Below are positions 6,389 through 50,025 of a DNA stretch of 51,773 nucleotides, one piece after another. The first letter of the stretch is position 1. Every line of letters starts with the position of its first letter. This stretch comes from Candidatus Margulisiibacteriota bacterium. Lineage in GTDB: Bacteria; Margulisbacteria; WOR-1; XYC2-FULL-46-14. Location: NCBI GenBank assembly GCA_042563095.1, contig JBHPMS010000004.1, positions 1-51,773 on the forward strand, in the 5' to 3' direction. The translations under genes and the position numbers were made by a program. The notes beneath the pieces were generated by a model, which had not been told where the DNA came from, did no database searches, and was given only the letters and a program-made list of their open reading frames with translations.

Positions 6389-6415
6389 GTATCGGCCAAA
6401 AAGAGGAAAAATTTC
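6389..6415 (-). promoter_or_regulatory. sigma28/FliA-like promoter GAAA-N15-GCCGATAC
   Basis: Close to the TAAA-N15-GCCGATAA consensus; 27 nt upstream of the 6361 start. Confidence 0.65.
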
Positions 6416-6422
6416 AGACAAT

Positions 6423-7082
6423 TTAACGCAGGGTAAATTTTATGTTATCCAGGCAATAATCAATTGCACCGGTTTTACTGCCGGCAACAGCAATCAGCTG
6501 CATTTGCAACAGGCCGCCAGAAGCATTCTGTTTTTGTGGATTCCAAATGTTGTCGCCTGCATTTGGATTATTATCAACAAAACTTGAAAAAGGAACCGCA
6601 ACCCGTTTCCAGCCGCTCCAATCAATCTTTTGCTCATAAACAAAACGATCATCAAAAACCGGAGCATAAGCTTTTTTCGGATCTTGCTCGATTTGCCAAT
6701 TACCGTTGTCGTCGTCATAAAGTTCGATTTTTAATGATCCGTTTTCCGGGCCAGCGCTGTAGATGTCCATTTCGATGTACGAATATTGTGAGAGATCGAG
6801 TTCCCCCTTTGCCAGATAAGTTCCCATGCCGCCGACATACCAGTCGATCGCCTTTCCGGTTAGCGCAAGGGAATAAGCGCCTTTGGCCGGATTACGCTTA
6901 AACATTGTTGTTACATTATCAAAGACCCACCATTCCGGACTGGCAGTTATTTCTCCATCCTCAAAATTGTCGATCATGTAAGCAGAAGCAACGGTGGCTT
7001 GTTCTTGGGCCGGCGGTTTTCCAAAAGCGAAAGCCGGGACCATCAGAGCTAAAACCATTAAGACGACGAATGTTTTTCTCAT
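6423..7082 (-). CDS. Exported carbohydrate-binding (CBM11/CIA30-like) beta-sandwich protein
   Basis: Signal peptide; IDNFEDG, DLSQYSYI, DWSGWKRVAVPFSSF, LDNIKF are typical of galactose-binding-like domains. Confidence 0.65.
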   Translation of the reverse strand: MRKTFVVLMVLALMVPAFAFGKPPAQEQATVASAYMIDNFEDGEITASPEWWVFDNVTTMFKRNPAKGAYSLALTGKAIDWYVGGMGTYLAKGELDLSQYSYIEMDIYSAGPENGSLKIELYDDDNGNWQIEQDPKKAYAPVFDDRFVYEQKIDWSGWKRVAVPFSSFVDNNPNAGDNIWNPQKQNASGGLLQMQLIAVAGSKTGAIDYCLDNIKFTLR

Positions 7083-7157
7083 AACTTATTATATATTTGT
7101 TTTCTTATAAGTGTCAACTTTATGTTATAATAAAAAAATAGATAAGGAGGAATAACC

Positions 7158-7613
7158 ATGGCTAAAAAAATGTTTGCACTAATTTTAGGAATCTTGTTGA
7201 TCTCTTCCCAGGCATATGGCGCAGCGTCAAGTATCGGATATGTTGATTTGCAAAAAACGCTTAAAGCATATAAAAACACCGCAAAGACACAGAAAGAACT
7301 GGATAAAAAACAAAAAGCTTACCAGGAAGACTTCACCAAGTTTCAAAAAAAACTTTCTGATGCTGAAAATTCGGGGAAGAGCAAAAACGAACTTGAAAAG
7401 ATGAGAAAAGATATGGAAACAAAGCTTTCAAAAAATCAGTCAGAAATAATGGCTTTTAACCAACAATTCAACTCTGCCCTGCAGAGTAAGATTTTAAAGG
7501 CGGCCGGCGCCATTTCAAAAAGATTGGGGCTTGATCTGGTTATGGATAAACAAGCGGTGATAGTTGGCGGGCTCGATATAACCGATATGTTGATTACCGA
7601 AATCAACAAATAA
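7158..7613 (+). CDS. skp: OmpH/Skp periplasmic chaperone
   Basis: IGYVD after the signal peptide, coiled coil, C-terminal DIT motif; next to lpxD. Confidence 0.85.
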
Positions 7614-7620
7614 CAACAGC

Positions 7621-10351: not shown

Positions 10352-10396
10352 CAAAAATAGGCTGAAATTTTTTTATTTGATTGCGTATATTAATAC

Positions 10397-10846
10397 GTGC
10401 AAAGTATCAACAAATTAAATGGTTTAACAAAGAGAAAATTATCTGGACGAGATTACTTGTCCAAGCTAGTTTCACAATTTAATGGCACGAGAGAATTAAA
10501 CACAAAAGTGGCGACCTTTATTTTAATATGGGAAAAAAGCCCTGAACTTGCGATCAAGCTGGGGCGTTGTGTTACATTAGGCCCAAGTGTACAGGAAAAA
10601 ATTGTTAATTGTTTCGGTGAAATAGTTTGTGAAAGTGAAGATGTAGATGAAAAAAACGAAGCAGCACGAACGTTGGTTTCGTTGAATTTTCCTGGCGTAA
10701 GAGCACTATTTGAGCTTATTGTTGAACAAACAAAAACACACTTGTCTGGCAAAGGGTTCTTGAACTGTCCATGGTTATTTGTTAAACCACTTGACACCTA
10801 TGCTGTGGCTGTGACGGCATTAAGCTTTTTATTTACGTGTGAATAG
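10397..10846 (+). CDS. Hypothetical protein (helical)
   Basis: 149-aa ORF filling the intergenic gap; no recognised motif. Confidence 0.5.
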   Translation: MQSINKLNGLTKRKLSGRDYLSKLVSQFNGTRELNTKVATFILIWEKSPELAIKLGRCVTLGPSVQEKIVNCFGEIVCESEDVDEKNEAARTLVSLNFPGVRALFELIVEQTKTHLSGKGFLNCPWLFVKPLDTYAVAVTALSFLFTCE

Positions 10847-10890
10847 CTGTTCTGATAGCCCCATTAATATTTCTGTGATAAAATTGTTTT

Positions 10891-12028: not shown

Positions 12029-13156
12029 ATGAAAAACCCTTTTTACTACGGTGAAGCAGCTACCGGTGAATACTTTACGAATCGGACCGAAGAGATTAAA
12101 AGCTTACATTCAGATCTTAGTCGGGGCCAAAACGTCATTATTTTTTCGCCTCGTCGTTATGGAAAAACATCTTTGATTAAAAAGGTATTGGGCCAGCTTA
12201 AAAAAGATGGCCTTTTAGTTGTTTATGCAGATCTCTGCGCGGCCACTTCAAAGAAAAAATTTATTGAAATACTTACCGGCGCAATTGCTAAAGCTATTGA
12301 GGGGGATATAAGTAAAATTGCAAAGCTATTAAAGCAATTGCTTCCAAGGATAATCCCAAAGATTATTATTAATACAGAAGGGCTACCAGGGCTAGAGCTA
12401 GAATTCAAAGGGACCAAAAGAAATATTTCTTTAATTCTGGATGAACTGTTTGAGCTGGTGCCTAAATTTATAAAGAAAAAAAGAAAACAGGCAGTGATTG
12501 TGCTGGATGAATTTCAGGAGATCCTAAATTTTGAAGACGATGAAATTGAGCGGACTTTTCGATCACACCTCCAATTTCATAAAGGGATATCCTATGTTTT
12601 TATGGGCAGTAAAAAGCACTTGATTTATGATATGTTTAGCAATCCCAACCGCCCTTTTTATAAAAGTGGGCGAATGTTTCCTTTGCAAAAAATTAAAGCT
12701 GCTGACTTTGAGCCGTTTATCAGGAAGAGTTTTAAAAACTCGGGAATTGAGATAGATGGCATATCGATAAAGACTATCCTGGATATTTCAGAATGTCATC
12801 CTTATTACACCCAGTTAATCTGCAGTATTCTGTGGGACCGTTGTATAGGTATAAAGAAGATAGGGAAAGTCGATATAACCTCTGCACTAAAAGAAGCAAT
12901 CGCCAGATCATCTGCAATTTACCTTGAAATATTCGACAATCTTACACATCCTCAAAAAAGGTTATTAGAGGCCATTTCAAAAGATTCTTCAGATAGCATA
13001 TATTCAAAAGAGTTTATCCTGGAGAATGAACTAGGAGCAGCGACCTCGATTCAACGCAGCATTAAAGCACTTATAAGGAAGGGACTTGTAGAAAAAGGGA
13101 ACGGGGATTACATATTTTCTGATATTATTTTTTATAAGTGGCTGCGAGCAAAATAA
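12029..13156 (+). CDS. AAA+/'archaeal-type' P-loop ATPase with C-terminal winged helix
   Basis: NPF, FTNR, SPRRYGKTS (Walker A), VIVLDEFQ (Walker B), HPYYTQ. Confidence 0.85.
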   Translation: MKNPFYYGEAATGEYFTNRTEEIKSLHSDLSRGQNVIIFSPRRYGKTSLIKKVLGQLKKDGLLVVYADLCAATSKKKFIEILTGAIAKAIEGDISKIAKLLKQLLPRIIPKIIINTEGLPGLELEFKGTKRNISLILDELFELVPKFIKKKRKQAVIVLDEFQEILNFEDDEIERTFRSHLQFHKGISYVFMGSKKHLIYDMFSNPNRPFYKSGRMFPLQKIKAADFEPFIRKSFKNSGIEIDGISIKTILDISECHPYYTQLICSILWDRCIGIKKIGKVDITSALKEAIARSSAIYLEIFDNLTHPQKRLLEAISKDSSDSIYSKEFILENELGAATSIQRSIKALIRKGLVEKGNGDYIFSDIIFYKWLRAK

Positions 13157-13185
13157 GAAGTTTATCAGCATAATGAAGAAGGTAT

Positions 13186-13230
13186 TACCGGGAATCCCGG
13201 CGGATTGACAAAACACCAGGATTCCCGGTA
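13186..13230. repeat. 12-bp inverted repeat TACCGGGAATCC/GGATTCCCGGTA (terminator- or operator-like)
   Basis: Read directly; encloses a TTGACA at 13205-13210 and is followed by TTTT. Confidence 0.6.
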
Positions 13231-13258
13231 TTTTCCATAAAAATATCATAAAGATGTA

Positions 13259-13287
13259 TTGACATAATACATAATATGTAATAATAT
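13259..13287 (+). promoter_or_regulatory. sigma70 promoter TTGACA-N17-TAATAT with spacer palindrome TACATA-a-TATGTA; near-leaderless start
   Basis: Read directly; ATG at 13295 with no SD. Confidence 0.6.
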
Positions 13288-13294
13288 AGTACAT

Positions 13295-14644
13295 ATGTAT
13301 AACAGAAGAGTTATTAAGTTTTTAGATAAATGGAGACAAAGAAAGCAAAGAAAGCCCTTGATATTGAGAGGTGCCAGGCAAGTTGGGAAGACATCGGCAG
13401 TAGAAATTTTTGCAAAAAGATACTTTAAATACTTAATTGATATCAACCTAGAGAAAGCTGAACATTTGAGGTTATTTAATAATCAGCCTTCGCTAGATGA
13501 ATTTTTAACAATTATCAAAGCAGAGTTTAAAATTTCTATCATTCCCGGAGAAACGTTAATTTTTATTGATGAAATTCAAAATTCTCCTCACTTAATAAAA
13601 CTGTTGAGATTTTTTTATGAAGAACGTCCAGAATTACATATTATAGTGGCAGGTTCATTATTGGAGGCAATGATTACAAGAGAGGGTTTCTCTTTCCCGG
13701 TAGGTAGGGTGGAGTTTTGTTATATGTATCCATTGGACTTTTTTGAATACCTTGAGGCAAAACAAGAAAACGAACTTCTAAAGATGTTAAAAACTTATGA
13801 ACTTTCGCAAACAATTCCTGAGGCGATACATCAAATGGCACTTAGAATTTTTTATGAGTATGCGATGATAGGGGGGATGCCGGAGGCGGTGGCAGAATAT
13901 TTATCAAACCACGATATAAATAATGTTGTTAAAATATACTCTGCTTTGATGGCCGGTTACCTGGACGATGTCTATAAATATGCCTCGCAAGCTGATGCAA
14001 AATACATCAGCTTTATAATAGAAAATGCTCCACTTTTTGCTGGGACGCAAATAACCTACGAAAAATTCGGAGGATCTAATTTTCGTAGTCGTGAAATGAG
14101 CAAGGCTTTTACATTATTAGAAAAAGTTAGGTTGCTCTACCAAATCCGAGCAACCCAAAGCAATAGCTTGCCTTTGGTTCCAAAAGAGAGGAGGGCAAAA
14201 AAGTTAATATATGTTGATATCGGACTAATTAACTATCGCCTGAACGTCTTAAATGAGTATTTGAGCATTAATGATTTTGGCGGTTTTTTTAGGGGGAAAA
14301 TGGCCGAACAACTAGTTGCTCAAAATATTTTTTCACAATATATTGATGAGGTTCCAAGGATTTATTATTGGGCGAGAGACAGAAAGGAAGGAAGCGCCGA
14401 AGTAGACTTCTGTCTCAACTTCAAAGGGAAGACTTTGGGGGTTGAAGTCAAAAGCGGGAAAGTTGGGAGATTAAAATCCCTAAGCATTTTTGCTAAATAT
14501 AATCAAGAAAGTACACTTATAAGAGTTTATAGCGGCAGGTTAACCAAAGAAAAAATAAATAATAGAAATATGATTTCCCTTCCCTTTTATATGGTGCCGA
14601 GAATATTTGATTTTATTGATACAAATAGTGGATCAAGTCCATGA
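13295..14644 (+). CDS. AAA_14 ATPase with DUF4143-like / PD-(D/E)xK C-terminus
   Basis: GARQVGKT, IFIDEIQ, GGMPE, EVDF...VEVKSG. Confidence 0.9.
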   Translation: MYNRRVIKFLDKWRQRKQRKPLILRGARQVGKTSAVEIFAKRYFKYLIDINLEKAEHLRLFNNQPSLDEFLTIIKAEFKISIIPGETLIFIDEIQNSPHLIKLLRFFYEERPELHIIVAGSLLEAMITREGFSFPVGRVEFCYMYPLDFFEYLEAKQENELLKMLKTYELSQTIPEAIHQMALRIFYEYAMIGGMPEAVAEYLSNHDINNVVKIYSALMAGYLDDVYKYASQADAKYISFIIENAPLFAGTQITYEKFGGSNFRSREMSKAFTLLEKVRLLYQIRATQSNSLPLVPKERRAKKLIYVDIGLINYRLNVLNEYLSINDFGGFFRGKMAEQLVAQNIFSQYIDEVPRIYYWARDRKEGSAEVDFCLNFKGKTLGVEVKSGKVGRLKSLSIFAKYNQESTLIRVYSGRLTKEKINNRNMISLPFYMVPRIFDFIDTNSGSSP

Positions 14645-19359: not shown

Positions 19360-22140
19360 GTGGATTTTCTTTCCGATAAACTATCAAGCGGGAGCAGACG
19401 AATTGTCATAAACGCACTCCCGCAACCGGCCAGGGCTGTTTTTTTCTCAACACTTATAAAACAAGATCAGCGGCCTTTTTTGATTGTTACGGCCCATTTG
19501 CACGAGGCGGTTGCACTGGCAAGTACAATTGGAGGAGAACTTTTTCCGGCACCAGATGGGGGACTTGAAACAACCGCTGCCAGGCTTAAACTTTTAAACA
19601 CACTGCCAAAAATCATAGTTGCGCCGCTTAAGGCATTGATGAGAAAAACAACCTCAAAATTAGAAATTAGAAAATCAAGATTAGAAATTAGGGCCAATAC
19701 CGAGTACTCAGTTGAACAATTAATTTCAAAGTTTGTGCAGTTTGGTTACACAAGACAGGAAATTGTGGGAGAGAGGGGAGAGTTTGCGGTGAGAGGGGGG
19801 ATTGTTGATATATTTTTTGATGATCCGGTCAGGATCGAATTTTTTGGAGAAAAAGTTGAATCAATCCGCAGCTTTGATTGTGCAACGCAGCGCTCAATAA
19901 AAAAGCTGGGCTCGGTAACAATATATCCAACCACGGAGGAAGGGAATACTTCTTTTTTTGAACACCTGGATAAAAAGACCGTAATCTTCTGGGACGAGCC
20001 GATGAAGCTCAGGCTGATCGCAGAAAGAAACTTAGACGAAGAAGTTGCTCCAGGCGTATCTTTTGAGGAAATAGAGAATTTCTTAAAGAACTTTCAAGTG
20101 ATTGAAAATAATCCGCTGGAAGATGGGATAAAAATTGGTTTGTCAGATTTTGGGCAGGAGGCATTAACGCAGCCTGAAAAGAAAGTTAAAAAACCTAAAA
20201 AACCCGCAGCCGAAGGGATTAACCGGGAGCTCTTGCTTGAGCTGAAAGCTGGCGACCTGGTAGTGCATGAAAACTATGGAATTGGGATTTATGGCGGGAT
20301 GCAGAAGATGGAGGTGGATCAGGTTACCCAGGAATACTTATTAATTAATTATGCCAAAGAGGACCGCCTCTTTGTCCCGCTGCAGCAGATGGGATTGATC
20401 GAAAAGTATTCTGGCGGAGTTGCTCCAAAGATCCATCGGCTTTCAGGCGGAGAGTGGAAAAAAACCAGGCAGAAAATTGAGAAAGGGTTAGAAAAACTTA
20501 CTAAAGATCTTCTGCTCCTTTATGCAGTGCGGAATAAATCAACCGGTTTTTCTTTCCCGTCTGAATCGGAATGGCAGCATGACCTGGCCGGCTCTTTTCA
20601 ATACGAAGAGACCGCTGATCAGCGTAAGGCTATAAGTGATGTAAAAAAAGATATGGAGTCGGCCCTGCCGATGGACCGGTTAGTTTTGGGGGATGTGGGG
20701 TATGGCAAGACAGAGGTTGCACTGAGGGCCTCCTTTAAAGCCGCGGTTTCTGGTAAGCAGGTGGCAGTCTTGGCCCCTACCACAATTCTGGTAGAGCAGC
20801 ATTATGCGACTTTTGAAGCTCGCCTAAAACCGTATCCGGTAAAAGTTGCAGGGCTTAGCCGCTTTAAATCAAAAGAGGAGCAGAAAATAATTGTAGAGCA
20901 GATCAAAAATGGAGAGATTGATATAGTTATCGGGACCCATCGCTTATTGCAAAAAGATATTACATTTGCTGATCTTGGGCTTTTGATCATTGACGAGGAA
21001 CAGCGTTTTGGAGTAGGGCATAAAGAAAAGATCAAACAATTCAAGAAAAACGTTGATGTATTAACTCTTTCCGCCACCCCCATACCCCGAACGCTCAACA
21101 TGTCGTTATCGGGTGTTCGTGACATGAGCTTGATAAACACGGCTCCACTCGACCGCTTACCGATTAGAACCCACGTTTTACCCTGGAATGAGTCGTTGAT
21201 AAAAGAAGTCATTGATCGTGAGCTTGATCGGGGTGGGCAAGTGTATTTTGTCCATAACTTTGTACAAACCATTAATAACCGGGCAAAAAAAATAAAAGAG
21301 CTAATTCCTGACGCGAAGGTTGGGATTGCCCATGGGCAGATGCGGGAATTTGAACTGGCCAAAGTTATGCGCAACTTTTTAGAACGCAAATATGATGTCT
21401 TAGTCTGCACTACCATAATCGAATCGGGGCTTGATATCCCGAACGTAAACACAATGCTGGTTGACCATGCCGAACGCTTTGGCCTGGCCCAGCTTTATCA
21501 ACTACGCGGCCGGATCGGCCGCTCCCCAACTCGAGCATATGCTTATCTGCTTTACCATAAAGAAGAGTTGTTAACCGAGGTTGCGCTCGAGCGGCTCAAG
21601 GCAATTCAAGAATTTACCCGGCTCGGTTCTGGTTATCGGCTGGCTTTGCGTGATCTTGAAATCCGTGGAGCGGGAACACTATTGGGTGCCAGGCAATCCG
21701 GGCATATTGCTCAGATTGGATTTGATATGTACTGCGATCTTTTGGAAGAGGCCGTGAGAAAAGCGAAGGGGATCGAGATACCAGCCCCAAGGCAGGTTGT
21801 GGTTGATATAAAAATATCAGCTTACATTCCGGACGATTATATCACTGACGAAAAACAACGTATTGCTACTTATCGCAGACTAACTCTTTTAGACTCAACC
21901 GAAAAACTTCAGGAGATGAAAAAAGAACTAATTGACCGCTTTGGTAAGATTCCGCAACAATTAAAAATACTCATAAAAATCATTCAGCTAAAAATCATTG
22001 CACAAAAAGCAGGGATTAAAATAATCAGGGAAGAGGGCCGACAGCTTTATGTTGAATGGTTTGACGGCAGGCACAAGCTTTTTAAAAAGCCTAATTCAGA
22101 TATTCTTTTACAAGTTTTGGAGAAGAAGTTTCGGCAATAA
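19360..22140 (+). CDS. mfd: Transcription-repair coupling factor (compact)
   Basis: RGGIVDIF, VVHENYGIG, GDVGYGKTEVA, DEEQRFGV, QLRGRIGRS, TRCF tail. Confidence 0.95.
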   Translation: MDFLSDKLSSGSRRIVINALPQPARAVFFSTLIKQDQRPFLIVTAHLHEAVALASTIGGELFPAPDGGLETTAARLKLLNTLPKIIVAPLKALMRKTTSKLEIRKSRLEIRANTEYSVEQLISKFVQFGYTRQEIVGERGEFAVRGGIVDIFFDDPVRIEFFGEKVESIRSFDCATQRSIKKLGSVTIYPTTEEGNTSFFEHLDKKTVIFWDEPMKLRLIAERNLDEEVAPGVSFEEIENFLKNFQVIENNPLEDGIKIGLSDFGQEALTQPEKKVKKPKKPAAEGINRELLLELKAGDLVVHENYGIGIYGGMQKMEVDQVTQEYLLINYAKEDRLFVPLQQMGLIEKYSGGVAPKIHRLSGGEWKKTRQKIEKGLEKLTKDLLLLYAVRNKSTGFSFPSESEWQHDLAGSFQYEETADQRKAISDVKKDMESALPMDRLVLGDVGYGKTEVALRASFKAAVSGKQVAVLAPTTILVEQHYATFEARLKPYPVKVAGLSRFKSKEEQKIIVEQIKNGEIDIVIGTHRLLQKDITFADLGLLIIDEEQRFGVGHKEKIKQFKKNVDVLTLSATPIPRTLNMSLSGVRDMSLINTAPLDRLPIRTHVLPWNESLIKEVIDRELDRGGQVYFVHNFVQTINNRAKKIKELIPDAKVGIAHGQMREFELAKVMRNFLERKYDVLVCTTIIESGLDIPNVNTMLVDHAERFGLAQLYQLRGRIGRSPTRAYAYLLYHKEELLTEVALERLKAIQEFTRLGSGYRLALRDLEIRGAGTLLGARQSGHIAQIGFDMYCDLLEEAVRKAKGIEIPAPRQVVVDIKISAYIPDDYITDEKQRIATYRRLTLLDSTEKLQEMKKELIDRFGKIPQQLKILIKIIQLKIIAQKAGIKIIREEGRQLYVEWFDGRHKLFKKPNSDILLQVLEKKFRQ

Positions 22141-22411
22141 GTTTGCCGTTTTGGTCTTTTATCATAAGCACACCATCTTTAACAATGATCTGGTCGTTAT
22201 AAATATTATTCTGATGAACCTTTTTTAAGTAGAGACCGATTAAAAATTCCGCCATTTGAGGATTTATATGTCCTCTTACAAACGGATGCGGCTCTATTTG
22301 AATTTCTGTGTGCCTGGCTTTTATTACCGGAGCCTTATGATGCTTCCGCCAGAGTTTTTTCAGCGCCGCTTCAAGGCGGTCAAGATATGATATTGGTTTC
22401 TTCTTGTGCAT
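22091..22411 (-). CDS. Hypothetical basic protein
   Basis: Translationally coupled to 22411-23124 (TAATG overlap). Confidence 0.55.
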   Translation of the reverse strand: MHKKKPISYLDRLEAALKKLWRKHHKAPVIKARHTEIQIEPHPFVRGHINPQMAEFLIGLYLKKVHQNNIYNDQIIVKDGVLMIKDQNGKLIAETSSPKLVKEYLN

Positions 22412-23124
22412 TAGACCGGCCTCCCTCCATTCAACACAGAAAGGCTTCTTCCTCCCTTTTCGGCTGCCTGTTGTGATATGCCGAGTTCAGGAGCAAGGCG
22501 TGCAAATAATTTGGCTGGCTGATGAACTGTTGAAGTTTTGTTTTTTGCTGTTACATGATGCGCACCGTGTGCATGTTGTAATTTTTCTCCACGAAAATGG
22601 GGTGTTCTATTATGTGCCACTGCATTAATTTGTTCATGTGGATGGCTTTTTTGCTTTCCAAGTAATATTTCAGCAGCATTTTGTTGGTTTGGATTTTTTG
22701 CAATGCGATTAATTCTACCGGCAAATTTTGATGCGTTTTGTTTGGCAAGTTTCTTTAATGGTTTGGGTAATTTTTTTGGTGTACCCGGTTTGTCAGGCAA
22801 TGGAGTCATTTCTTCAAAAAGGGCTATGGCCGCTCCTCCGGTTTCAGCCAGGTCAGAGATGCCAACCTTTTCAAGAATTTCGTTCAAAGTTAAACCGGAA
22901 AAAGAAAGACCGATACTGTCATCAATGAATTTTACAGCACCAATAACTTTTTTCTTTAAAAAATCAATTCCTTCTCTTGCAACTTTTTCATTTTGTTCTG
23001 GTATTTTTGCTTCTTGCTGGTGCCCCGCATTAGTTTTTTTGGCAAGAATCTCTGTATAAGACATAAGCCTTGGTTTGTGTGATGTTTGAGGAACTTTTTT
23101 TGGTATTTGTGCGTTGAAAGCCAT
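22411..23124 (-). CDS. Hypothetical basic, His/Lys/Pro-rich protein
   Basis: SD GGAGG and sigma28-like promoter upstream. Confidence 0.65.
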   Translation of the reverse strand: MAFNAQIPKKVPQTSHKPRLMSYTEILAKKTNAGHQQEAKIPEQNEKVAREGIDFLKKKVIGAVKFIDDSIGLSFSGLTLNEILEKVGISDLAETGGAAIALFEEMTPLPDKPGTPKKLPKPLKKLAKQNASKFAGRINRIAKNPNQQNAAEILLGKQKSHPHEQINAVAHNRTPHFRGEKLQHAHGAHHVTAKNKTSTVHQPAKLFARLAPELGISQQAAEKGGRSLSVLNGGRPV

Positions 23125-23142
23125 CTCTTCCCTCCACTTATA

Positions 23143-23169
23143 TTATCGATATAATAAGGAAAAAACTTG
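23143..23169 (-). promoter_or_regulatory. sigma28-like promoter CAAG-N15-ATCGATAA
   Basis: Read directly. Confidence 0.6.
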
Positions 23170-23170
23170 T

Positions 23171-23308
23171 GCCCTCACCCTGGTTTTTTTGATAATTGAT
23201 TGCGAATTGATTTTAGTCCCTCTCCCATTCAATAATATTTTGTAATATGTATGGGAGAGGGACAACGAACCAATTCCTGTGCTAAGATCAAGATATGAGG
23301 GTGAGGGC
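23171..23308. repeat. Nested inverted-repeat (REP/MITE-like) element
   Basis: GCCCTCACCCT(23171-81)/AGGGTGAGGGC(23298-308) enclosing GTCCCTCTCCCAT(23216-28)/ATGGGAGAGGGAC(23251-63). Confidence 0.8.
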
Positions 23309-23704
23309 GTGAAAGAATTCGATAGATTAGTAAAAATCGTCAAAAAACTGCGTAAAGAGTGCCCTTGGGACCGCCGGCAGACCCATAAGAGCTTGCGTCC
23401 GTATATGCTCGAAGAGACCAACGAGGCGATCGAAGCGATTAACAAGCGCGACTATATCCAACTGGCGGAGGAGCTGGGCGATCAGCTGCTCCACATCCTG
23501 ATGCACGCCGAAATCAGCAAAACATTCACGGTAAAGGATATTATCAGGCATATCACCGAAAAAATGGTCCGGCGGCATCCGCACGTATTTGCGAAAAAAA
23601 AAGTCCGGGGCGTGAAGGATGTTTTAAGAAACTGGGAAGCAATTAAAAAAAAAGAAGACAGAACACGGCAATCTGGTGTAAAATTAAGAAGAAATGAAAA
23701 ATAA
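23309..23704 (+). CDS. mazG: Single-domain MazG nucleotide pyrophosphohydrolase
   Basis: [28 protein letters not shown]; GTG start at 23309. Confidence 0.9.
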
Positions 23705-26700: not shown

Positions 26701-26840
26701 ATAAACGCGCAAAAAAAATACTCTCATGCAACAAGGCTAAGGCGGAAGAGATTGCTGCTGTTTTGATGGAGAAAGAAACACTTGAAGGGGAAGCCTTAGA
26801 AAATGTTCTCAAGGGTATAGCTGCAGAAGAAGAATGTTAG
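23694..26840 (+). CDS. ftsH: ATP-dependent zinc metalloprotease FtsH precursor containing an intein (603-aa extein)
   Basis: 2 [13 protein letters not shown] pore loop, FMDEID, SRH, HEVGH. Confidence 0.97.
24396..25730 (+). mobile_element. Intein with LAGLIDADG homing endonuclease (445 aa)
   Basis: FVGVGA|SVTGDTPV ... TTGDHS ... LLGYYTAEG ... [10 protein letters not shown] ... VYDL ... LLHN|SRVR; removal restores FVGVGASRVR. Confidence 0.95.
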
Positions 26841-29782: not shown

Positions 29783-29806
29783 GTTAATTCTCCTCCATCT
29801 AAATAA

Positions 29807-29833
29807 ATTTCGATCAATCATCGAAAAAATTTC
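29807..29833 (-). promoter_or_regulatory. sigma28-like promoter GAAA-N15-ATCGAAAT
   Basis: Same spacing as the other copies; weaker -10 match. Confidence 0.45.
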
Positions 29834-29885
29834 AACTTAAATTGTATTTCTAAAGCTGTTATAATGATTTAAGAGAGGTTATAAG

Positions 29886-40046: not shown

Positions 40047-40083
40047 TCCCTCTCTTCTTGGGAGAGGGGCAAAGGGTGAGGGC
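40047..40083. repeat. Partial second copy of the CCCTCTC/GGGAGAGGG/AGGGTGAGGGC element
   Basis: Same arms as 23171-23308. Confidence 0.7.
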
Positions 40084-40084
40084 G

Positions 40085-40111
40085 CAAGTTTATCTCTTGT
40101 AAATACGATAT
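40085..40111 (+). promoter_or_regulatory. sigma28-like promoter CAAG-N15-TACGATAT
   Basis: Read directly. Confidence 0.55.
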
Positions 40112-40138
40112 AGTATAATAAAAGGGGAGGCGATAAAG

Positions 40139-40261
40139 ATGACAAAGTTAAGGGAAGTATTTAAAAAATTATTAAAGCTAGAAAAAGGGATTAAGTCTTT
40201 AAAGAAAGAAATTAAAGCTGCAAAGCTGGCGCAAATAAAGAAAAGAAAATTTAAGGCTTAA
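40139..40261 (+). CDS. Cationic peptide A, 40 aa: MTKLREVFKKLLKLEKGIKSLKKEIKAAKLAQIKKRKFKA
   Basis: SD GGGGAGG; second copy at 41677 differs at many synonymous positions. Confidence 0.75.
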   Translation: MTKLREVFKKLLKLEKGIKSLKKEIKAAKLAQIKKRKFKA

Positions 40262-40292: not shown

Positions 40293-41471
40293 TTAAACAA
40301 AAGCGCTTAAGAACTTTGAGGCGCCGATTACCCTGATATGCCCTTTGATATAATCGACATTTTCTTCGTTTACAACTTCAAAAACATGCGGGATTTTTAG
40401 CTTTAAACTAAAGTACTTAAGGCTTTCTGACATTGATTTTGATGAGCTTTTGGCCTCCGCACAAAACCACGGCTTATTATCGATGCAAACCAAAAAATCT
40501 ACCTCTCTTTGTTCTTTATCCCTAATATAATAGAGCCGGGCCTTATAGCCTTCGACATCACAGAGGAAATCGCAGAACTTTAAAAGATGAGACGCGATCA
40601 TGTTTTCAAATTTTATGTTTTCATCTTTTATTTCCGACCAGTCCCACAGGTAAGCCTTAGGTTCTTTCCGCAGGGCTTTTATAAGAGTGCTTTGAAAAGG
40701 ATATATTCTAAAATAATAAAAAAACTTTTCCAGTACGTTTGCCCATAATGTTATTGTCTTGTGGTTCACCTCCAAATCTTCGCGCAATGAATTTAAAGAG
40801 AAAAGAGACCCGATTTTATCAGGCAGAAGATCAACCATAATTTGCAATGCCGATAAATCCCGCAAGTTTTCAACGTCCCGGATATCCTCCTTGATTAGCC
40901 TGTCTGCTTTGGAGGCGTGCCAGCGGCGCAAAGACCTTTCGTTTTGTTTTATAAATACTTCGGGGAAACCGCCGAATTTAAAAAGCAAATCGAATATGTT
41001 TTTATTCTGTCCGTGATTATTTGTAAAGTCCAACTTTGTAAACGGAAGGGGATAAGCATCTTTGTTTAACAGCTCTCCCAGAGACAGCGGGTGCAGACGG
41101 TAAAAGTGATATCTGCCCATTAATGAATCCCCGCCTTTTCGATAAACATCCAGCCGCGCGCTTCCCGTTACGAGGATATTAAACCTGCTTTTGTTTTTGT
41201 CATATTCTCCTTTTATATAATTTTTCCACTTTTTATATTTATGAATTTCATCAAAGATTAAAAGCTTTTTATCGGCCGGGAGTTTGTCGGCAAGAATGGT
41301 TTTTCTGTCTGATTGTTTGTCCCAGTTCAGGCAGGTATAGTTGTTTAAATAGTGCTTTTCTCCGATTTGGTTTGCGAATGTAGTTTTCCCAACCTGGCGC
41401 GGTCCGGAGATAAAAGCCATTTTTTCTTTCAGGTCTTCTAAGACATACTTTTCTAAATATCGATTAATCAT
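40293..41471 (-). CDS. AAA_14 ATPase with DUF4143-like C-terminus
   Basis: GPRQVGKTT, FDEIHK, TGSARL, GGFPE, REVDF..EAK; start moved to ATG 41471 (SD AGGAG). Confidence 0.9.
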   Translation of the reverse strand: MINRYLEKYVLEDLKEKMAFISGPRQVGKTTFANQIGEKHYLNNYTCLNWDKQSDRKTILADKLPADKKLLIFDEIHKYKKWKNYIKGEYDKNKSRFNILVTGSARLDVYRKGGDSLMGRYHFYRLHPLSLGELLNKDAYPLPFTKLDFTNNHGQNKNIFDLLFKFGGFPEVFIKQNERSLRRWHASKADRLIKEDIRDVENLRDLSALQIMVDLLPDKIGSLFSLNSLREDLEVNHKTITLWANVLEKFFYYFRIYPFQSTLIKALRKEPKAYLWDWSEIKDENIKFENMIASHLLKFCDFLCDVEGYKARLYYIRDKEQREVDFLVCIDNKPWFCAEAKSSSKSMSESLKYFSLKLKIPHVFEVVNEENVDYIKGHIRVIGASKFLSAFV

Positions 41472-43862: not shown

Positions 43863-45817
43863 ATGCCAAATGAAGTTTTAAAAACTTCGGTTTTTATCCT
43901 GCTTTTTTCTTTTCTTTCTTTTACCGCTTCAGCCCAATTCCTGGATGTCCCATTAACCAGCCCGATCCATGACGCCATCAAACTTTTAGCGGATGAAGGG
44001 ATAGTGCGGGTTGGCGCTGATAAAATATTTAACCCGAACGCCCTTATCAACCGCTATGAAATGTCGGTTTTGATCTTCCGCACCCTGCGTAAGACGTTGG
44101 GAAAAGATATTCCTCCAGCCGAGCCGCAGACAATGAGCCGGTTTTTTAAAGATATACCAAAGGGGCATTATGCTTATGATTCTGTCAGCCGCTTATTTAA
44201 ATCCGGGGTCGTATCAAAACCGTATAAGTCGGTGTTTAAAGGGGACAGTTCGGTCAGCCGATACGAATTTTATACAGCGGCAGCTAAGATGCTAAAAAAA
44301 ACCGGCAAAGGGCTTAAAGCGTCCGACCCCCAAAAAAAAGATACGTTTATTCTGACCTTGATGTTTTGCACTGGGCTTATCCGTCTATAGTCAGCTTGAT
44401 CCGGGCAGGGTATGTTCCGGAGCCAAAAGATAATACCGAACTATTTGAGGGAGAGGATTGGGTTACCCGGAAGGAGGCGGCGGCGCTGCTCTATTTTGTG
44501 GTCAAACGGGCTGCCGGCAGCGAACAGAAGCCGCCGGCGGCAGAAAAAAAGAGCTATCCGGATGTCCCGGCCGGCCACTACGCCGCGGACGATATTGCGG
44601 AACTGCTGGAAGCGGGGATACTTACCCTGCATGCCGAAAAAAAGTTTAAAGGGGGAAGGCCGGTAACGCGCTACCAGGCGATCGACCTGTTGGCTCAGTT
44701 GTTGGAGCAAGTCTTGTCCGGACAGGGAGGACTTAAGCAGGCTGCTTATGACCTGCGCTACAAAGATGTTTCCCTGCTACATCCGGCTTATTTGGACTAC
44801 GGTTTTGATTTTTCAATGAGCAATACAGCCAGCTTGGCACAGGGAAACCTGACCCAAGCTTCGGCCAGCCAGTTAGCCAATATAGCGTTTGACCGGAGCC
44901 TGGGGAATACCGCCCGCGGTTATGTCAATCTAAGGGGTAGTTATAACTTTGGCCAGACCACCGCAATAAACTCTTCAATAACTCAGGCTTATCTGGTATA
45001 TAATGCTGATCCATTTCATCTCCAGGCCGGCCGATTTCCGCTCTATGAGACCTATGACCCGTTTGGCAACAGTATTTTTGTTGATTCATTGCAAGATATG
45101 GTAGTGGTGGAGGGGTCGAAAAACTTTGGCCGGATAATGGGAGCTGTTAGCAAACTGGTCAATGTGGGGATTTTACAGGATGATTCCAAGGCAGGATTGG
45201 TCCTCTATCAACCGGAGCTCCCCCTTGAGCTTAGCCTGGGGTTTGCTCTGGTGACAGACCCAACTGACCCGAGCGGGGCATACAGCAGCGCCCGGCTTCC
45301 ATGCAATATTACACAGCTCTATATTGGCGTGCGTGTTCCGGCCAACAAGAATGTTACCCTTACACTTGAAGGCGCACAGGTATCTTTGAGTAATGAGGAA
45401 ACCGTGCTTCCGTATATTGGATTTACCAATGTGACCGATACAAAAGCATATCAAGCTTCCATTTCTTTTATAACCGATGACCTCAAGAACCAGTACTCTT
45501 TAGGTTACCAGAATATCGGGGAGGATTATTATATGGCAGAACTGCTCGATCCGGCGGCGCTGGTAGGTGGAGGGCAGGGGACCAGCGCCTATTTATATAA
45601 ATGGAGAAACTATATCAATAACCGGGAACATATCGGTGTCGGAATAGAATATATCATGTCTGGAGGAGAGAACCTCCAGAACAAGATAAATCTGTTATAC
45701 AGCCGGAGAATGTCCGACCAGATATATTCCAAGGCGACCGTAACCAGGACTGATGTCAAGACCGCCGGCGGGCAGGGCAGCTGGGATATTACCGGGCTGT
45801 TGGCGGCCTATTTTTGA
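43863..45817 (+). pseudogene. Multi-SLH outer-membrane beta-barrel, copy 1; frameshifted at A8 (44332-44339)
   Basis: Two ORFs join via one extra A into a paralog of 47608-49989; four full SLH repeats; ends AAYF. Confidence 0.85.
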
Positions 45818-45819
45818 TG

Positions 45820-45846
45820 CAAGAAATGCGGGTAGAAACACGATAA
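45820..45846 (+). promoter_or_regulatory. sigma28-like promoter CAAG-N15-CACGATAA
   Basis: Read directly. Confidence 0.6.
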
Positions 45847-45866
45847 TATAAACAGAGGTGAGTGTT

Positions 45867-46033: not shown

Positions 46034-47241
46034 CTATAGATATTGCCAGGGGACCAGGGTGATTTTGTCGGTCAGCTTTTCCGGCCGGCTGCCCATAGTA
46101 ATTACATAACCCTTTTTTGCAACTTTTGGATAATCATCAAGAAAATTAATGAGCCCTTTTATTTGAGCTGTCCCAACCCTTTTGGACGCTTTGATCTCGA
46201 TCGGAATAACCTTGTTCCCAAGGTCAATAATACAATCAACCTCGGCTCCGGCGGAGGTGCGCCAATAATTAACCCGGTAGTCCTTGTTCAAAAGACGGAT
46301 CCTGCGAATTATCTCAAGCATTACCGCGTGCTCAAATAAAACTCCTTTTTGAGTATTTATAAGACCTTTAGTTAAAGGCAATCGGCAAATCGCGTTTCTG
46401 ACCCCAAGATCAAAAAAGTAGAAACGGGGAGAGGTTAAAAGGCGCTTGCGGGCCCTTTTTGTGTATGGTTCAATTCTTTCAACAATAAGCGTATCTACCA
46501 ATAAATTATAGAATTCCTTAACCGCAGGAGCGCTGACCCCGGATTCCATAGAAAGCCTGTTAAAATTCGGGCTGGTTCCGGACTCTTGTGCCGCCAGCTC
46601 TAAAAAACGCGAGAATGCGCCGATCTTTCTGCTGAGGGACTCCGCGCGGATCTCTTCTTCCAAATAGATATGGGAATATGCCTTAATAAAATCAGAACGG
46701 TCGTTATCGTTTTTTAAGGTGATGTTTTTCGGGAGCGACCCAAAAACCAGGCTTTTTTCAAAAGAATAGTCCGGCTTATTGATAACCACCGCAGTTCTGG
46801 TATATAATTTTCTTTTATCAATCCCAGCTCTCCATATGTAAACGGATCCATGTGAAAGTATTTTATTCTGCCGGGGAGCAGGTTGGTCCCTTTTCTTCTC
46901 AGTTTTCTGGCGGAAGAACCGGTAATTATAAAACTGGCCAGGTTTTTATCAAGCAGGTATTGGATAGCATCAAATAGTTCCGGTATCTTTTGGGCTTCAT
47001 CAATAAAAACCAGCGGCCTCTTTTTATTAGCCTCGATCTGGCGGATCAAGACAGCGGGGTCTTTTTCCAGCTCCATCCTGGTAGACGGGTTTTGCAGCAA
47101 AAAACTCATGCTGTTGCGTTTGTCTTTCAGCAAGCTTTCGATCAGGGTTGTTTTGCCGACCTGTCTGGGCCCCAGGATAAGAGCCGAGTGTCCCTGCTTT
47201 ATTAAACGCTTTAATTGCTTCTCTAGATTTCTTAATAACAC
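46034..47241 (-). pseudogene. Frameshifted AAA_14/DUF4143-like ATPase
   Basis: GPRQVGKTT/FIDEAQK in 46714-47241; GSLP...EVD..IEIK in 46034-46789; frame change near 46790. Confidence 0.85.
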
Positions 47242-47261
47242 TTTATATCTGCCTTGTAAAA

Positions 47262-47294: not shown

Positions 47295-47310
47295 GGGGGA
47301 GGAGCCTCAG

Positions 47311-47523
47311 TTACGCCAGCAATGCTGCCGGCAGCTCTTTAATTTCTTCTCGATTGGCAAAGGAGCTTTCAGGTCCGATTATCTCCGCTTCTCCAAAATA
47401 TACTTGAAGCGCCATACCAAGCAGTACGGTAATGCCAATAGATATTAAAGAAATTATACTTTTATCCCAGTAGGGGATTCCCAGTTGGATATAACGCCTT
47501 AATAGCGGCCAGTCTTTCTTCAT
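47311..47523 (-). pseudogene. Deleted remnant of a second ABC exporter
   Basis: First 37 aa (MKKDWPLL...SLISIGITVLLGM) closely match 42023-43774, then an unrelated tail. Confidence 0.85.
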
Positions 47524-47607
47524 GTTTTAGATAGTATATTATGTTTTAGGTGCAGTTTCAATGGGGGCTTGCATATAGGGTTTCATATAATGTATAATTT
47601 GCGAATT

Positions 47608-49989
47608 ATGAGAAAAATTATAACTTTGTTCCTATTATTATTGGTTTTTAGCCTGGCAGCTAACGCAGAATTTGTTGACGTCCCAAAACAAAATCCTCTA
47701 AGTGATGTTTTACAACTGTTATCGGTTGAAAGAGTAGTAAGCCCTGGCAGAGGGAGTAAGACTTTTAATCCTGATGCAAATATTACACGCTACGAAATGG
47801 CTGCAATATTATATCGAACTTTGAGGCGCATTCGAAGTATCCCCGCGGCTTCGACCACAACGATGAAGGTTCATTTTAAGGATATCAATCCCAAGCATTA
47901 TGCCTATGATGCTGTTCGCAGGCTACACAAAGCAGAGATTCTCTCAAAACCGAAGAAGAATAAGTTTATGGGGAATCAAAAAGTTAAACGCTATGAAATG
48001 GTTGCCGCTTTTGCCAAGCTCTTAAAAAAAACCCCGGTTTATAATATCTACGAAGTGCCGGAGGAATCGGTCTACATGTATAGTGATGTTAAACAGAATC
48101 ATTGGTCTTTTCCATACATGCTGGATTTAATAGAACGGGGCTATCTACCGGTGCCAGAGGGTGCACAGGATCATTTTAGCGGGGAGCAGTACGCCACCAG
48201 AAAAGAAGTTGCGGTCCTCTCTTACTTTTTAATGAGAAAGATGACAGAGTTGCGCAGAAATATTTCTAGTAAAAAGACCGCAACGATTGCTGCTCAAGCC
48301 AGCCTTCCCCAATCGTATCGTGATGTGCCAAACAGCCATGCTGTGGCTAGTGATATCTACGAATTAGCCGAAGCTGGAATTTTAAGTCCAGGCAAAGGAG
48401 ATCTTTTTAGGGGGAATGATTCTCTCACTCGTTACGAAGCGATGGAGTTGTTGACCCGGATATTAGAATCAGTTTTGGGACCCTTAACTGAGGCCGATTA
48501 TGATCTAGGATACAAAGATGTTTCGGTTCTCAATTCTTCTTATCCTTCCATTCAAAAACTAATAAAATTGGGAATCTTGCCAATGGGGAACAATCAAGAA
48601 TTGTTCAACGGGCAAAATATGGTAACCCGCTACCAAATGATTTATTCTTTCTTTCTTCCGATCGAAGATATTTTGACCGGAGTAACTGTTTTTCAGAAGG
48701 CCAGCCCAAAGATTATTTATCACGATGTCCCAAAAGATCATTTTACTTATCCGGTTATTCAAAAACTAATTGGCCTGGGAACTTTACGGGGCGGAGCAAA
48801 TTATACATTTAATGGGAACGATTATGTAGGTAGATATGAGGCGGCCCATTTTATTACAAACTTGCTAAAGACGGTTTACACCACAATTGAGGATGTAAAA
48901 GCAATTGAAACTCCAGAATATTTGGATTATGGATTTGATTTTTCGTTGACCACGACTTTAGATTATTTGCAAAGGGAGAACACAAAATCAAGTGGGGGAA
49001 CGATGAGCCGTGCCTATGCTTATCAAACAGCCACACTTATCTTTAAGGGGAATGCGGGGAAAGATATTAGCGGGTACCTGAATCTAAAGACCTCCTACTA
49101 TTTTGGTCAGTTGACCACCCCCAGTACCAGCTTCTCCCTGGGATATTTAACTTTAAAAAGGAGACCGCTCACAATTCAAGCTGGAAGGACTGCTTATTAC
49201 AATGGGTATGATCCATTTGGAAATAGTTTGTTTGCAGATACTAGCAGTTCAGATTTAATTATTGTACAAGGAGCAAACCAGCTATTAAAAGGTTCGTTTG
49301 CAGTTGGGAAGTTGATCTATTTGGCAAATGATATATCATTTGATTCCAACATTGCTTCATTATATATAACACCACGCCTTAAACTCTTTAATCGGGCAGA
49401 ATTTTCATTTGGTTTAAACATGATGAATGATCCGCTTGATCCGAGTGGTTTATACACCGGTGGTATTTTACCAACCCGAATTACCCATCTTTATGCCGGA
49501 TCGAGAATTTCTCTAAATGATCGCTTTAAACTAAATCTGGAGGGAGCAAGTGTAGCCTATAGTAATGAAAGTGTAGTTTTACCTTACGTCGGATATTTAA
49601 CTAAAAAAGATTTAACTGCTTTTCAAACCGCATTAACTTATTACTCTCCAGATTATAAGCGACAACTATCAATTGGCTACCAGAGTATCGGGGATGATTT
49701 TTACATGGCACAATTCATCAGCCCGGGGGTTCAGGTTGGAGGAGGGCAGGGTACTACCGCATATCTGATCAAATATAGAAATTATTTTACAGGTGGAAAT
49801 TATGTTGGTCTATTGTTAGAGAATATTTCCAGGGATGGAACCAATACCACCAATCGCTACAATCTATTATACAATTTACGCCTAGCAGATCGAGCCTATC
49901 TCCGCTTTGATTTGATTAGAACAGATGACAATACCAGCAGTAAACGGAGCAGTTGGAACCTAACCGGAAAGACCTATATTTATTTTTAA
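47608..49989 (+). CDS. Multi-SLH (six repeats) outer-membrane beta-barrel, copy 2 (intact)
   Basis: Signal peptide; six (F/Y)xD(V/I)...R(Y/K)(E/Q) repeats; beta-rich C-terminus ending YIYF; start moved to ATG 47608. Confidence 0.88.
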   Translation: MRKIITLFLLLLVFSLAANAEFVDVPKQNPLSDVLQLLSVERVVSPGRGSKTFNPDANITRYEMAAILYRTLRRIRSIPAASTTTMKVHFKDINPKHYAYDAVRRLHKAEILSKPKKNKFMGNQKVKRYEMVAAFAKLLKKTPVYNIYEVPEESVYMYSDVKQNHWSFPYMLDLIERGYLPVPEGAQDHFSGEQYATRKEVAVLSYFLMRKMTELRRNISSKKTATIAAQASLPQSYRDVPNSHAVASDIYELAEAGILSPGKGDLFRGNDSLTRYEAMELLTRILESVLGPLTEADYDLGYKDVSVLNSSYPSIQKLIKLGILPMGNNQELFNGQNMVTRYQMIYSFFLPIEDILTGVTVFQKASPKIIYHDVPKDHFTYPVIQKLIGLGTLRGGANYTFNGNDYVGRYEAAHFITNLLKTVYTTIEDVKAIETPEYLDYGFDFSLTTTLDYLQRENTKSSGGTMSRAYAYQTATLIFKGNAGKDISGYLNLKTSYYFGQLTTPSTSFSLGYLTLKRRPLTIQAGRTAYYNGYDPFGNSLFADTSSSDLIIVQGANQLLKGSFAVGKLIYLANDISFDSNIASLYITPRLKLFNRAEFSFGLNMMNDPLDPSGLYTGGILPTRITHLYAGSRISLNDRFKLNLEGASVAYSNESVVLPYVGYLTKKDLTAFQTALTYYSPDYKRQLSIGYQSIGDDFYMAQFISPGVQVGGGQGTTAYLIKYRNYFTGGNYVGLLLENISRDGTNTTNRYNLLYNLRLADRAYLRFDLIRTDDNTSSKRSSWNLTGKTYIYF

Positions 49990-49998
49990 AATTGCACG

Positions 49999-50025
49999 CA
50001 AGTTTTTCGGGACTTGCTGCGATAG
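49999..50025 (+). promoter_or_regulatory. sigma28-like promoter CAAG-N15-TGCGATAG
   Basis: Read directly. Confidence 0.6.

Follow-up and report, generated by a model that had tools for sequence, protein, structure and literature searches.

The DNA analysed here, positions 1 to 51,773 of contig JBHPMS010000004.1 of a Candidatus Margulisiibacteriota bacterium (assembly GCA_042563095.1; class WOR-1/Saganbacteria), hereafter the window, is a stretch of 51,773 nucleotides (nt) with six short sequences that a preliminary description had taken for the promoters of a single sigma-28-like regulon. We show that these sequences represent two promoter classes, A and B, which have a sigma-28-type -10 element (CGATA) in common at one fixed distance and differ at three positions of the -35 element; both are defined by their motif architecture and by positional and orientation enrichment in the genome. 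Each class is, in our judgement, probably read by a FliA/WhiG-like (group 3, sigma-28-type) sigma factor, and not by RpoD. At the level of sequence, the idea of a sigma-28-like regulon is supported in kind, but as two regulons.

To our knowledge, Saganbacteria and Margulisbacteria have no cultured member, and the organisation of their transcription has not been described. A full-text literature search found no paper on promoters or sigma factors of these bacteria; a passage in one preprint notes that Margulisbacteria often defeat a sigma-70-based promoter predictor. A class-wide motif of 26 bits would provide a means to annotate transcription units and regulons in Saganbacteria genomes.

Two motif classes in the genome

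The source genome assembly comprises 1.007 Mb in 80 contigs, with 39.8% G+C, and is 52% complete; intergenic DNA, as left by the gene caller used here, makes up 6.5% of it. The degenerate pattern into which the preliminary description pooled all six sites is not enriched by count either in the window (9 matches as compared to 5.72 +/- 1.98 in 100 shuffles, 8 of which reach 9) or in the genome (125 matches as compared to a mean of 101.3 and a maximum of 122 in 10 second-order Markov simulations). The genome-wide enrichment check proposed there fails, therefore, for the pooled pattern by count and succeeds by position: 44 of the 125 matches fall in the intergenic 6.5% of the genome, and both classes, once split, are strongly intergenic.

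A genome-wide tabulation of the CGA(T/A)A occurrences in intergenic DNA upstream of genes brought out two sharp long motifs. The consensus of class A is aAAAT-n4-TGAAATTT-N14-(C/T/A)GATA(A/T)ATAnnTAG, and that of class B is (AT)GCAAGTTT(T)-N13/14-CGATAAT. In both, CGATA, with its A at -11, lies 17 nt downstream of the 4-nt -35 core, and the two classes also have in common an upstream A-tract and a downstream TAG, which is conserved some 13 nt after the C of CGATA. In the class A -10 element, the G and the A of CGATA are invariant (1.8 and 1.6 bits), with an A where sigma-70 needs a T, at -7; the spacer has a single length in 56 of the 74 sites used to build the matrix. For class B, the matrix combines 10 sites of the source genome with 14 of a relative, G013, and gives each letter of CGATA 1.4-2.0 bits, the seeds having been selected by CGATA.

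At a threshold of at least 20 bits, the two-block class A matrix (26 bits) detects 61 distinct sites in the genome, 57 of them intergenic, and 47 of the 61 have a start on the same strand within 150 nt, at a median distance of 43 nt. The same matrix finds no site on the reversed genome, none on the complemented genome, and 0.05 per third-order Markov simulation of the intergenic DNA. The strict, untrained class A pattern TGAAATTT-N14-CGAWA yields 17 matches, all 17 intergenic, with 0.4 expected. For class B, the matrix finds 12 sites of at least 20 bits in the source genome, all intergenic, and the strict untrained pattern CAAGT-N16-CGAWA yields 12 matches, 11 of them intergenic, with 3.9 expected in total. 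The spacers of both classes lack conserved sequence, which means that the sites do not represent a single copied element.

Housekeeping promoters are distinct from both classes, given that the tRNA genes rely on ordinary TATAAT promoters. Of the 19 tRNA genes in the source genome, none is preceded by a class A site within 150 nt, whereas TAnAAT lies within 60 nt upstream of 7. The elements TTGACA, TGCTATAAT and TATAAT are enriched in the sense orientation upstream of source-genome genes, and TTGACA-N16-18-TATAAT occurs 11 times, always in intergenic DNA. Measured against the sigma-70 promoter TTGACA-N17-TATAAT with its T at -7, the six window sites have an A at -7 and no TTG. The gene for RpoD itself follows dnaG on contig C1, in a dnaG-rpoD operon; its product scores 386 bits with the RpoD model (cut-off 354) and has standard region 2.4 and 4.2 sequences. 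The numbers of class A sites had made it worthwhile to consider this class as the housekeeping promoter; the tRNA promoters and the RpoD residues rule this out.

The six sites of the window and their targets

All six sites were found in the sequence at the reported coordinates and on the reported strands. Each consists of a 4-nt -35 core, 15 nt, and nnCGA(T/A)A, in the proper orientation, with a Shine-Dalgarno sequence at the start downstream, and lies 24-38 nt from the start codon as measured from the C of CGA. What had to be abandoned is their unity, given that they fall into two motif classes, to which about 61 and 12 sites, respectively, belong in this half of a genome. The sites and the genes downstream are as follows.

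6381-6426, minus strand: class A promoter; A-rich stretch 6426-6417, -35 TGAAATTT 6416-6409, -10 CGATA 6394-6390, TAG 6383-6381; 34.4 bits
4993-6361, minus strand: class A target operon; 274-amino-acid (aa) signal-peptide protein (5537-6361) followed after 1 nt by peptidyl-tRNA hydrolase (4993-5535)
29799-29844, minus strand: class A promoter; -35 TGAAATTT 29834-29827, -10 CGAAA 29812-29808, TAG 29801-29799; 28.7 bits; 30 nt to the ATG at 29782
29600-29782, minus strand: class A target; 60-aa open reading frame (ORF) with a GGAGG Shine-Dalgarno sequence, no Pfam family
23130-23180, minus strand: class B promoter; GGGTGAGGG box 23180-23172, -35 CACAAGTTT 23171-23163, -10 CGATAAT 23148-23142; 32.9 bits; 24 nt to the ATG at 23124
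22091-23124, minus strand: class B target; two basic proteins without a Pfam family, of 237 aa (isoelectric point, pI, 10.1) and 106 aa (pI 9.9)
40074-40118, plus strand: class B promoter; GGGTGAGGG box 40074-40082, -35 GCGCAAGTTT 40082-40091, -10 CGATA 40106-40110; 25.3 bits; 33 nt to the ATG at 40139
40139-40261, plus strand: class B target; 40-aa peptide, 40% Lys+Arg, pI 10.8
45817-45850, plus strand: class B promoter, the weakest of the four; -35 ATGCAAG 45817-45823, without TTT, -10 CGATAAT 45841-45847; 20.8 bits
45867-45980, plus strand: class B target; 37-aa peptide, 38% Lys+Arg, pI 11.1
49996-50033, plus strand: class B promoter; -35 ACGCAAGTTT 49996-50005, -10 CGATA 50020-50024; 33.3 bits; 38 nt to the ATG at 50058
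50058-51221, plus strand: class B target operon; 50-aa basic peptide (50058-50210, pI 10.4), then a 332-aa signal-peptide protein (50223-51221)
10353-10400, plus strand: extra class-A-like site of low confidence; -35 TGAAATTT 10363-10370, -10 GTATATTAAT, without CGATA; 23.4 bits

The promoter at 6381-6426 is intergenic, with 33 nt from the C of CGATA to the ATG at 6361, and its transcript would start at G 6381. The 274-aa protein has no Pfam family, and the Pfam scan assigns the gene downstream to Pept_tRNA_hydro. In a structure atlas comparison, the 274-aa protein shows a feature score of 0.96 to the Phage_OMP barrel cluster and a template-modelling (TM) score of 0.73 to the YaiO family, so that, judging from the predicted fold, it is a YaiO-like outer-membrane beta-barrel; the barrel of the preliminary description was correctly recognised, and only its orphan status falls. 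The gene described there as encoding a TIM barrel cannot be upheld as such: its 332-aa product has no family and no confident fold (predicted structure with a predicted local distance difference test score, pLDDT, of 0.40). The -35 element in the 45817-45850 promoter begins on the final base of the stop codon of the upstream gene, and the 37-aa peptide ORF that follows was not predicted by the gene caller used here. The class-A-like site at 10363-10400 on the plus strand was absent from the preliminary list.

Distribution in Saganbacteria and in the phylum

Both strict patterns are present in all 41 WOR-1/Saganbacteria genomes: class A at 5-199 matches per genome (0-3 in the reversed control) and class B at 5-31 (0-4 in the reversed control). 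The perfect TTGACA-N17-TATAAT pattern, which has a similar information content, is limited to 2-12 matches per genome in these 41 genomes; class A is, by this measure, as common as consensus sigma-70 promoters or commoner. In a survey of 110 genomes of the phylum, every one of the 55 class relatives had class A; for the 54 genomes that belong to other classes, the matches number 0-52, with zero in 8 of them. A class A site lies directly upstream of rpoD in the source genome (27.5 bits) and in 7 of the 11 rpoD loci of relatives. The class B promoters of relatives, among the matches listed, mostly read CAAGTTTT...(C/A)CGATA and are nearer to the sigma-28 consensus. In G013, 14 of the 19 strict class B matches were judged bona fide, and ATGCAAGT is nearly invariant in those 14.

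Additional boxes were seen next to some class B promoters. In relatives, the GCAAGTT box of certain class B promoters is followed by another within the spacer, about 11 nt farther downstream (G013:C1:169996, G026:C14:7605, G032:C21:10150, G015:C4:171500); these promoters may be orthologous to one another across the genomes, or the additional box may be bound by a second factor. At 23172-23180 on the minus strand and 40074-40082 on the plus strand of the window, and at G013:C1:81861 and 1028465, a GGGTGAGG(G/A) box directly adjoins the class B -35 element; one of these two G013 promoters precedes fliK. As a candidate general element next to the class B -35, the GGTGAGG box was rejected: with 12 matches in 9 of the 41 genomes, as compared to 6 in the reversed control, it is sporadic and, therefore, not a general part of class B.

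Comparison with sigma-28 promoters

According to passages of a study of the Pseudomonas aeruginosa sigma-28 open complex (PMC12784957), the consensus for the FliA/SigD/WhiG sigma factors is TAAAGTTT-N11-GCCGATAA, with the -10 element numbered (-15)GCCGATAA(-8); A-11 is flipped and the base at -7 is not; residue Q228 reads the -35 element and R97 the GC bases of the extended -10 element. The window promoters are similar in several respects. The geometry is the same (a 4-nt -35 core followed by 15+2 nt to CGA), and so is the -10 core, CGATA(A/T); where sigma-28 promoters continue CGA with TAA or TAT, each of the six window sites has CGA(T/A)A. The -35 sequence TAAA(GTTT) is matched in part only, at AAGTTT by the class B GCAAGTTT and at AA.TTT by the class A TGAAATTT. 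The likeness extends to the likely sigma factors, whose best family is FliA_WhiG and whose genes lie in flagellar-type operons. When the P. aeruginosa register is applied, the conserved class A TAG has its G at +1 and, by this analogy, transcripts of both classes would start at the G of TAG.

The differences are also clear. The first two letters of the -35 element are TG or GC instead of TA; there are two promoter classes and two sigma paralogues, both scoring below the curated family cut-off; and the targets are mostly non-flagellar genes without a known family. At the extended -10 positions, class B shows a weak C/A preference only. In a by-eye reading of the alignment with the Escherichia coli protein, P. 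aeruginosa R97 aligns with a Tyr in the longer, 250-aa paralogue, and the shorter, 200-aa paralogue lacks the region that carries the R97 equivalent.

Candidate sigma factors

The source assembly encodes two sigma factors, RpoD and, on contig C80, an unusual RpoD-like sigma of 397 aa. The relatives have two conserved sigma paralogues, for both of which FliA_WhiG is the top NCBIfam model (144.5 and 83.1 bits). The 250-aa paralogue scores 131-146 bits across the relatives and is present in 53 of the 55 class relatives at 60-69% identity. The 200-aa paralogue, which consists of regions 2 and 4 only, without region 3, scores about 83 bits, passes the broad sigma70-ECF (extracytoplasmic function) superfamily model (72.6 bits; cut-off 42.9), and is found in all 55 class relatives and in 52 of the 54 other genomes of the phylum. 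In G013, the gene of the 250-aa sigma ends 1.1 kb upstream of fliF; since fliF of the source genome lies at the very start of contig C5, the coordinates indicate that its 250-aa sigma gene was most likely lost to an assembly gap.

The simplest reading is one paralogue per class. In region 4.2, the 200-aa form has the helix SESQVSRI, similar to SESRVSQL of solved FliA proteins, which hints that this form reads the more canonical class B; the corresponding helix of the 250-aa form, SRSKVNRL, is more changed. Three approaches to the pairing yielded no discrimination. By structure, both paralogues have a Ser at the S224 position and an Arg at the Q228 position. By presence and absence, G001 and G020 lack the 250-aa form at an E-value of 1e-15, yet contain both motif classes, and in G001 an assembly gap is the probable cause because the neighbouring fliF is also missing. 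By covariation, the region 4.2 helices of 9 genomes from other classes did not track the class A counts.

Several points weigh against the assignment of the two classes to sigma-28-type factors. No FliA-like sigma gene was found in the 52%-complete source assembly by tblastn with both paralogues, a contig break being the probable cause. In several respects the system departs from a strict FliA system: the curated FliA_WhiG cut-off (TIGR02479, 189.6 bits) is passed in none of the 41 genomes, the leading TA of TAAA is present in the -35 element of neither class, and the GC of the extended -10 element is missing, with class A carrying 0.1 bit at both positions. The Arg that both paralogues have in place of Q228, the Gln that reads the -35 element in P. 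aeruginosa, speaks against the hint that the 200-aa form reads class B, and the SESQVSRI helix is unchanged in phylum members with zero class A matches. Training and scoring of the class A matrix used one and the same genome, and the strict untrained pattern is, for that reason, the cleaner test. The class A sites at C12:56491 and C12:57798, both on the plus strand, are near-identical copies and, therefore, not independent. Finally, the source-genome site before fliK is weak (14.3 bits with the class B matrix). The alternative sigma-28-like factor postulated in the preliminary description is, on balance, favoured by the -10 element, the spacing, the FliA-like sigmas of the relatives and the link to flagellar operons; the sigma gene itself is the part not recovered from the assembly.

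Two observations pertain to loci mentioned above. The two C12 promoters are separated by 1.3 kb and have identical leaders; a receiver-domain gene follows one of them, and a gene without a known family follows the other. A small conserved ORF of about 126 aa (G013:C1:266508-266888) is always located between flhA and the 200-aa sigma gene, in G001, G002 and G018 as well as in G013; it is a candidate for a partner such as an anti-sigma factor or a chaperone.

Regulon targets and the flagellar-type export apparatus

The targets of both classes are poor in recognisable families. Outside the window, 26 of 37 class A targets have no Pfam match at an E-value of 0.001 or better (rpoD being omitted as already known), and all 5 class B targets scanned have none at 0.001. 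In the window, the five proteins downstream of class B sites, namely, four direct targets and the 332-aa product of a second gene, all lack a Pfam match at 0.01; the background is 17 of 56 window proteins without a match. Of the class B window targets, three are short peptides (37-50 aa) in which Lys+Arg make up 28-40%. Other class A targets include genes for a LacI-type regulator, a response regulator, a GGDEF protein, CheR, a RelA/SpoT-like protein, topoisomerase I (topA) and a 1530-aa SNF2 helicase-methyltransferase.

The class B targets of G013 are FliK (Flg_hook, 36 bits), a transglutaminase-like protein, a TPR protein and proteins without a family; the latter are Ser/Thr/Asn-rich at the start, have no signal peptide, and look like flagellar export substrates, which is only a resemblance. 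In the same genome, class B promoters stand at the head of two operons, one running from fliK to the 250-aa sigma gene, flgB, flgC and fliF, and the other from a rod gene to flhB, flhA, the small ORF and the 200-aa sigma gene (FliK was named by Pfam, and the rod genes, FliF and FlhA by family-search coordinates; the other gene names are inferred from position). The genes of both operons are co-directional, and no promoter other than the heading class B promoter was detected in them. The targets overall are mostly non-flagellar, and most lack a Pfam family; these G013 operons are of the flagellar type.

The lineage cannot be regarded as one without flagellar genes. The source genome contains fliK, fliM, fliN, fliO, fliP, fliR, flhB and flhA in one operon (C23:12623-20890) and, apart from it, fliF (C5:245-766). 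FlhA was found in 39 of 41 genomes, and rod proteins and FliF in 4 of 5 genomes checked for each. The flagellin N-terminal domain was found in 0 of 21 genomes, and the flagellin C-terminal domain, the FliG C-terminal domain and the MotB plug each in 0 of 5 genomes, 3 of which are 95-99% complete, although divergent versions could escape such searches. Flagellin, a candidate class B target, was rejected with this result.

In the source genome and the relatives G013, G018, G002 and G001, the apparatus comprises FliK, FliM, FliN, FliO, FliP, FliR, FlhB, FlhA, FliF and rod proteins. It may be a non-motile, flagellum-derived secretion machine.

A model of two sigma factors

The functional claims made here on regulons and sigma factors are derived from sequence. 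Two class-wide FliA-like paralogues, one of about 250 aa encoded beside flgB-flgC-fliF and one of about 200 aa encoded last in the flhA operon, would each serve one promoter class. Class B would head the operons of flagellar-type type III export, including, as in G013, both sigma genes, as well as genes for small proteins that are basic or Ser/Thr-rich and belong to no known family. Class A would define a much larger regulon, with rpoD, topA, the RelA/SpoT-like gene, cheR, the GGDEF gene and many Pfam-less genes. These sigmas would read these motifs, and a cascade may connect the two. The two sigma-28 paralogues appear to have split the -35 specificity while the -10 element was kept, and dozens of genes of unknown function would be linked to a flagellar-type export apparatus seemingly devoid of every swimming part. 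We file the system, provisionally, as a two-paralogue, two-class system of putative sigma-28 type with an unusually large and mostly uncharacterised regulon in an uncultured class.

A broader and rather unlikely extension can be envisaged, whereby a type III machine free of filament, stator and torque domains functions as a secretion and checkpoint device with a two-step sigma switch, class B preceding class A. The class B paralogue would build the machine and its exported substrates, namely, small lysine-rich peptides and Ser/Thr-rich proteins that belong to no recognised family; the class A paralogue would then activate hundreds of promoters, including those of rpoD, topA and the RelA/SpoT-like gene. 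If true, this would be a whole-cell developmental switch like the sigma-28/hctB late programme of Chlamydia, only far larger. As for the "developmental or secretion programme" that the preliminary description proposed for the window targets, it can at most be inferred.

Alternative explanations

When considering the possibility that RpoD reads both classes, one has to assume promoters with a weak GATAAT-like -10 element in which the -35 is replaced by sites of lineage-specific activators, TGAAATTT for one and GCAAGTTT for the other. CGATAAT does contain GATAAT, which agrees with TATAAT at 5 of 6 positions, the second GCAAGTT box lies one helical turn downstream, as a factor site might, in some class B promoters of relatives, and the GGTGAGG box abuts the -35 element at the window sites 23148 and 40106 and at two G013 sites. 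However, the most conserved letters of the -10 element are the G and the A of CGA, and an A replaces the T at -7 that is most conserved with sigma-70; the -35 spacing is fixed at one value in 56 of the 74 matrix sites; the canonical sigma-70 promoters of the same genome look different and serve tRNA genes; and the source RpoD has standard residues in regions 2.4 and 4.2. We consider this explanation improbable. A single sigma factor reading both classes appears unlikely as well. If the two -35 elements are aligned on TG, TG-AAATTT and TGCAAGTTT have a common core with one extra base; the -10 element, the downstream TAG and the upstream A-tract are common to both classes, and G001 and G020 contain both motifs with no 250-aa paralogue detected at an E-value of 1e-15 or better. 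Still, the two -35 forms fall into separate clusters and do not grade into each other, as attested by the near-invariance of ATGCAAGT in the 14 G013 sites; in G001, which also lacks FliF, the neighbour of the 250-aa sigma elsewhere, the absence is more likely due to a missing contig; and two conserved paralogues do exist across the class.

The 397-aa RpoD-like sigma (C80:24035-25228, minus strand; locus L004:1471-2664), which has a 140-aa N-terminal extension and scores below every NCBIfam cut-off, has to be considered as the reader of class A in the source genome. It is the only alternative sigma in the assembly, its gene has a class A site upstream (29.8 bits), and its region 2.4 reads WWIRHAIIR as compared to WWIRQAITR of primary sigma factors (Bacillus subtilis SigA), that is, with His and Ile where E. 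coli sigma-70 has the Gln and Thr by which position -12 is read. Nevertheless, its region 4.2 (TRERIRQI) is that of a canonical TTGACA reader, and no orthologue was found in 40 relatives, in nearly all of which RpoD, at about 40% identity, is the sole counterpart; class A sites occur in each of the 40, often in far greater number than in the source genome, so that this protein cannot explain the class-wide motif, and we regard its role as the class A reader as very improbable. Chance matches, or copies of one repeated element, can be practically dismissed. The lack of enrichment of the pooled pattern by count, the longer GGGTGAGGGC box common to the window sites 23148 and 40106, and the near-identical pair on contig C12 would fit this explanation; it is refuted by the 17 of 17 and 11 of 12 intergenic strict matches, by the unconserved spacers, by the diversity of the target genes, and by the occurrence of both motifs in 41 of 41 genomes with reversed controls near zero.

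Relation to other regulatory systems

The proposed pair of sigma-28-type regulons resembles, in part, several known systems. In Chlamydia, sigma-28 has non-motility targets, including the late gene hctB, which encodes a very basic, lysine-rich protein; the regulon is small, and the organism has an injectisome. The window has likewise non-motility targets, among them the three small class B peptides rich in Lys and Arg, but these peptides are known from their sequence alone, the sites here number from tens to hundreds, and the export apparatus is of the flagellar type. The sigma-28 regulon of Campylobacter jejuni, a motile organism with flagellin, includes non-flagellar proteins exported through the flagellum. 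Here, too, an organism that has a flagellar export gate carries sigma-28-type promoters before genes for non-flagellar proteins; unlike in C. jejuni, no flagellin, FliG C-terminal domain or MotB plug was found, and export of the targets is only predicted.

The B. subtilis sigma-W promoter, of the ECF type, is TGAAAC-N16-CGTA. Class A, which reads TGAAAT-N16-CGATA, is similar, as is the two-domain build of the 200-aa paralogue (regions 2 and 4); however, the -10 element has CGA and not CGT, and the 200-aa protein matches FliA_WhiG best, with SESQVSRI aligned to the FliA sequence SESRVSQL. In E. coli, a sigma-32 heat-shock promoter lies between dnaG and rpoD. The arrangement in the source genome and at the 7 of 11 loci of relatives, with an alternative-sigma promoter in the same place, is comparable, but the motif is not the sigma-32 consensus, and no RpoH-like sigma was seen.

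Other genes of the window

The FtsH gene at 23694-26840 on the plus strand encodes a protein of 1048 aa with an intein inside the AAA domain (matches to Intein_splicing and LAGLIDADG_3). Genes of AAA_14/DUF4143 ATPases are scattered in the window by the class B promoters (12029-14644, 40293-41471 and 46034-46789), the last of them without the ATPase half.

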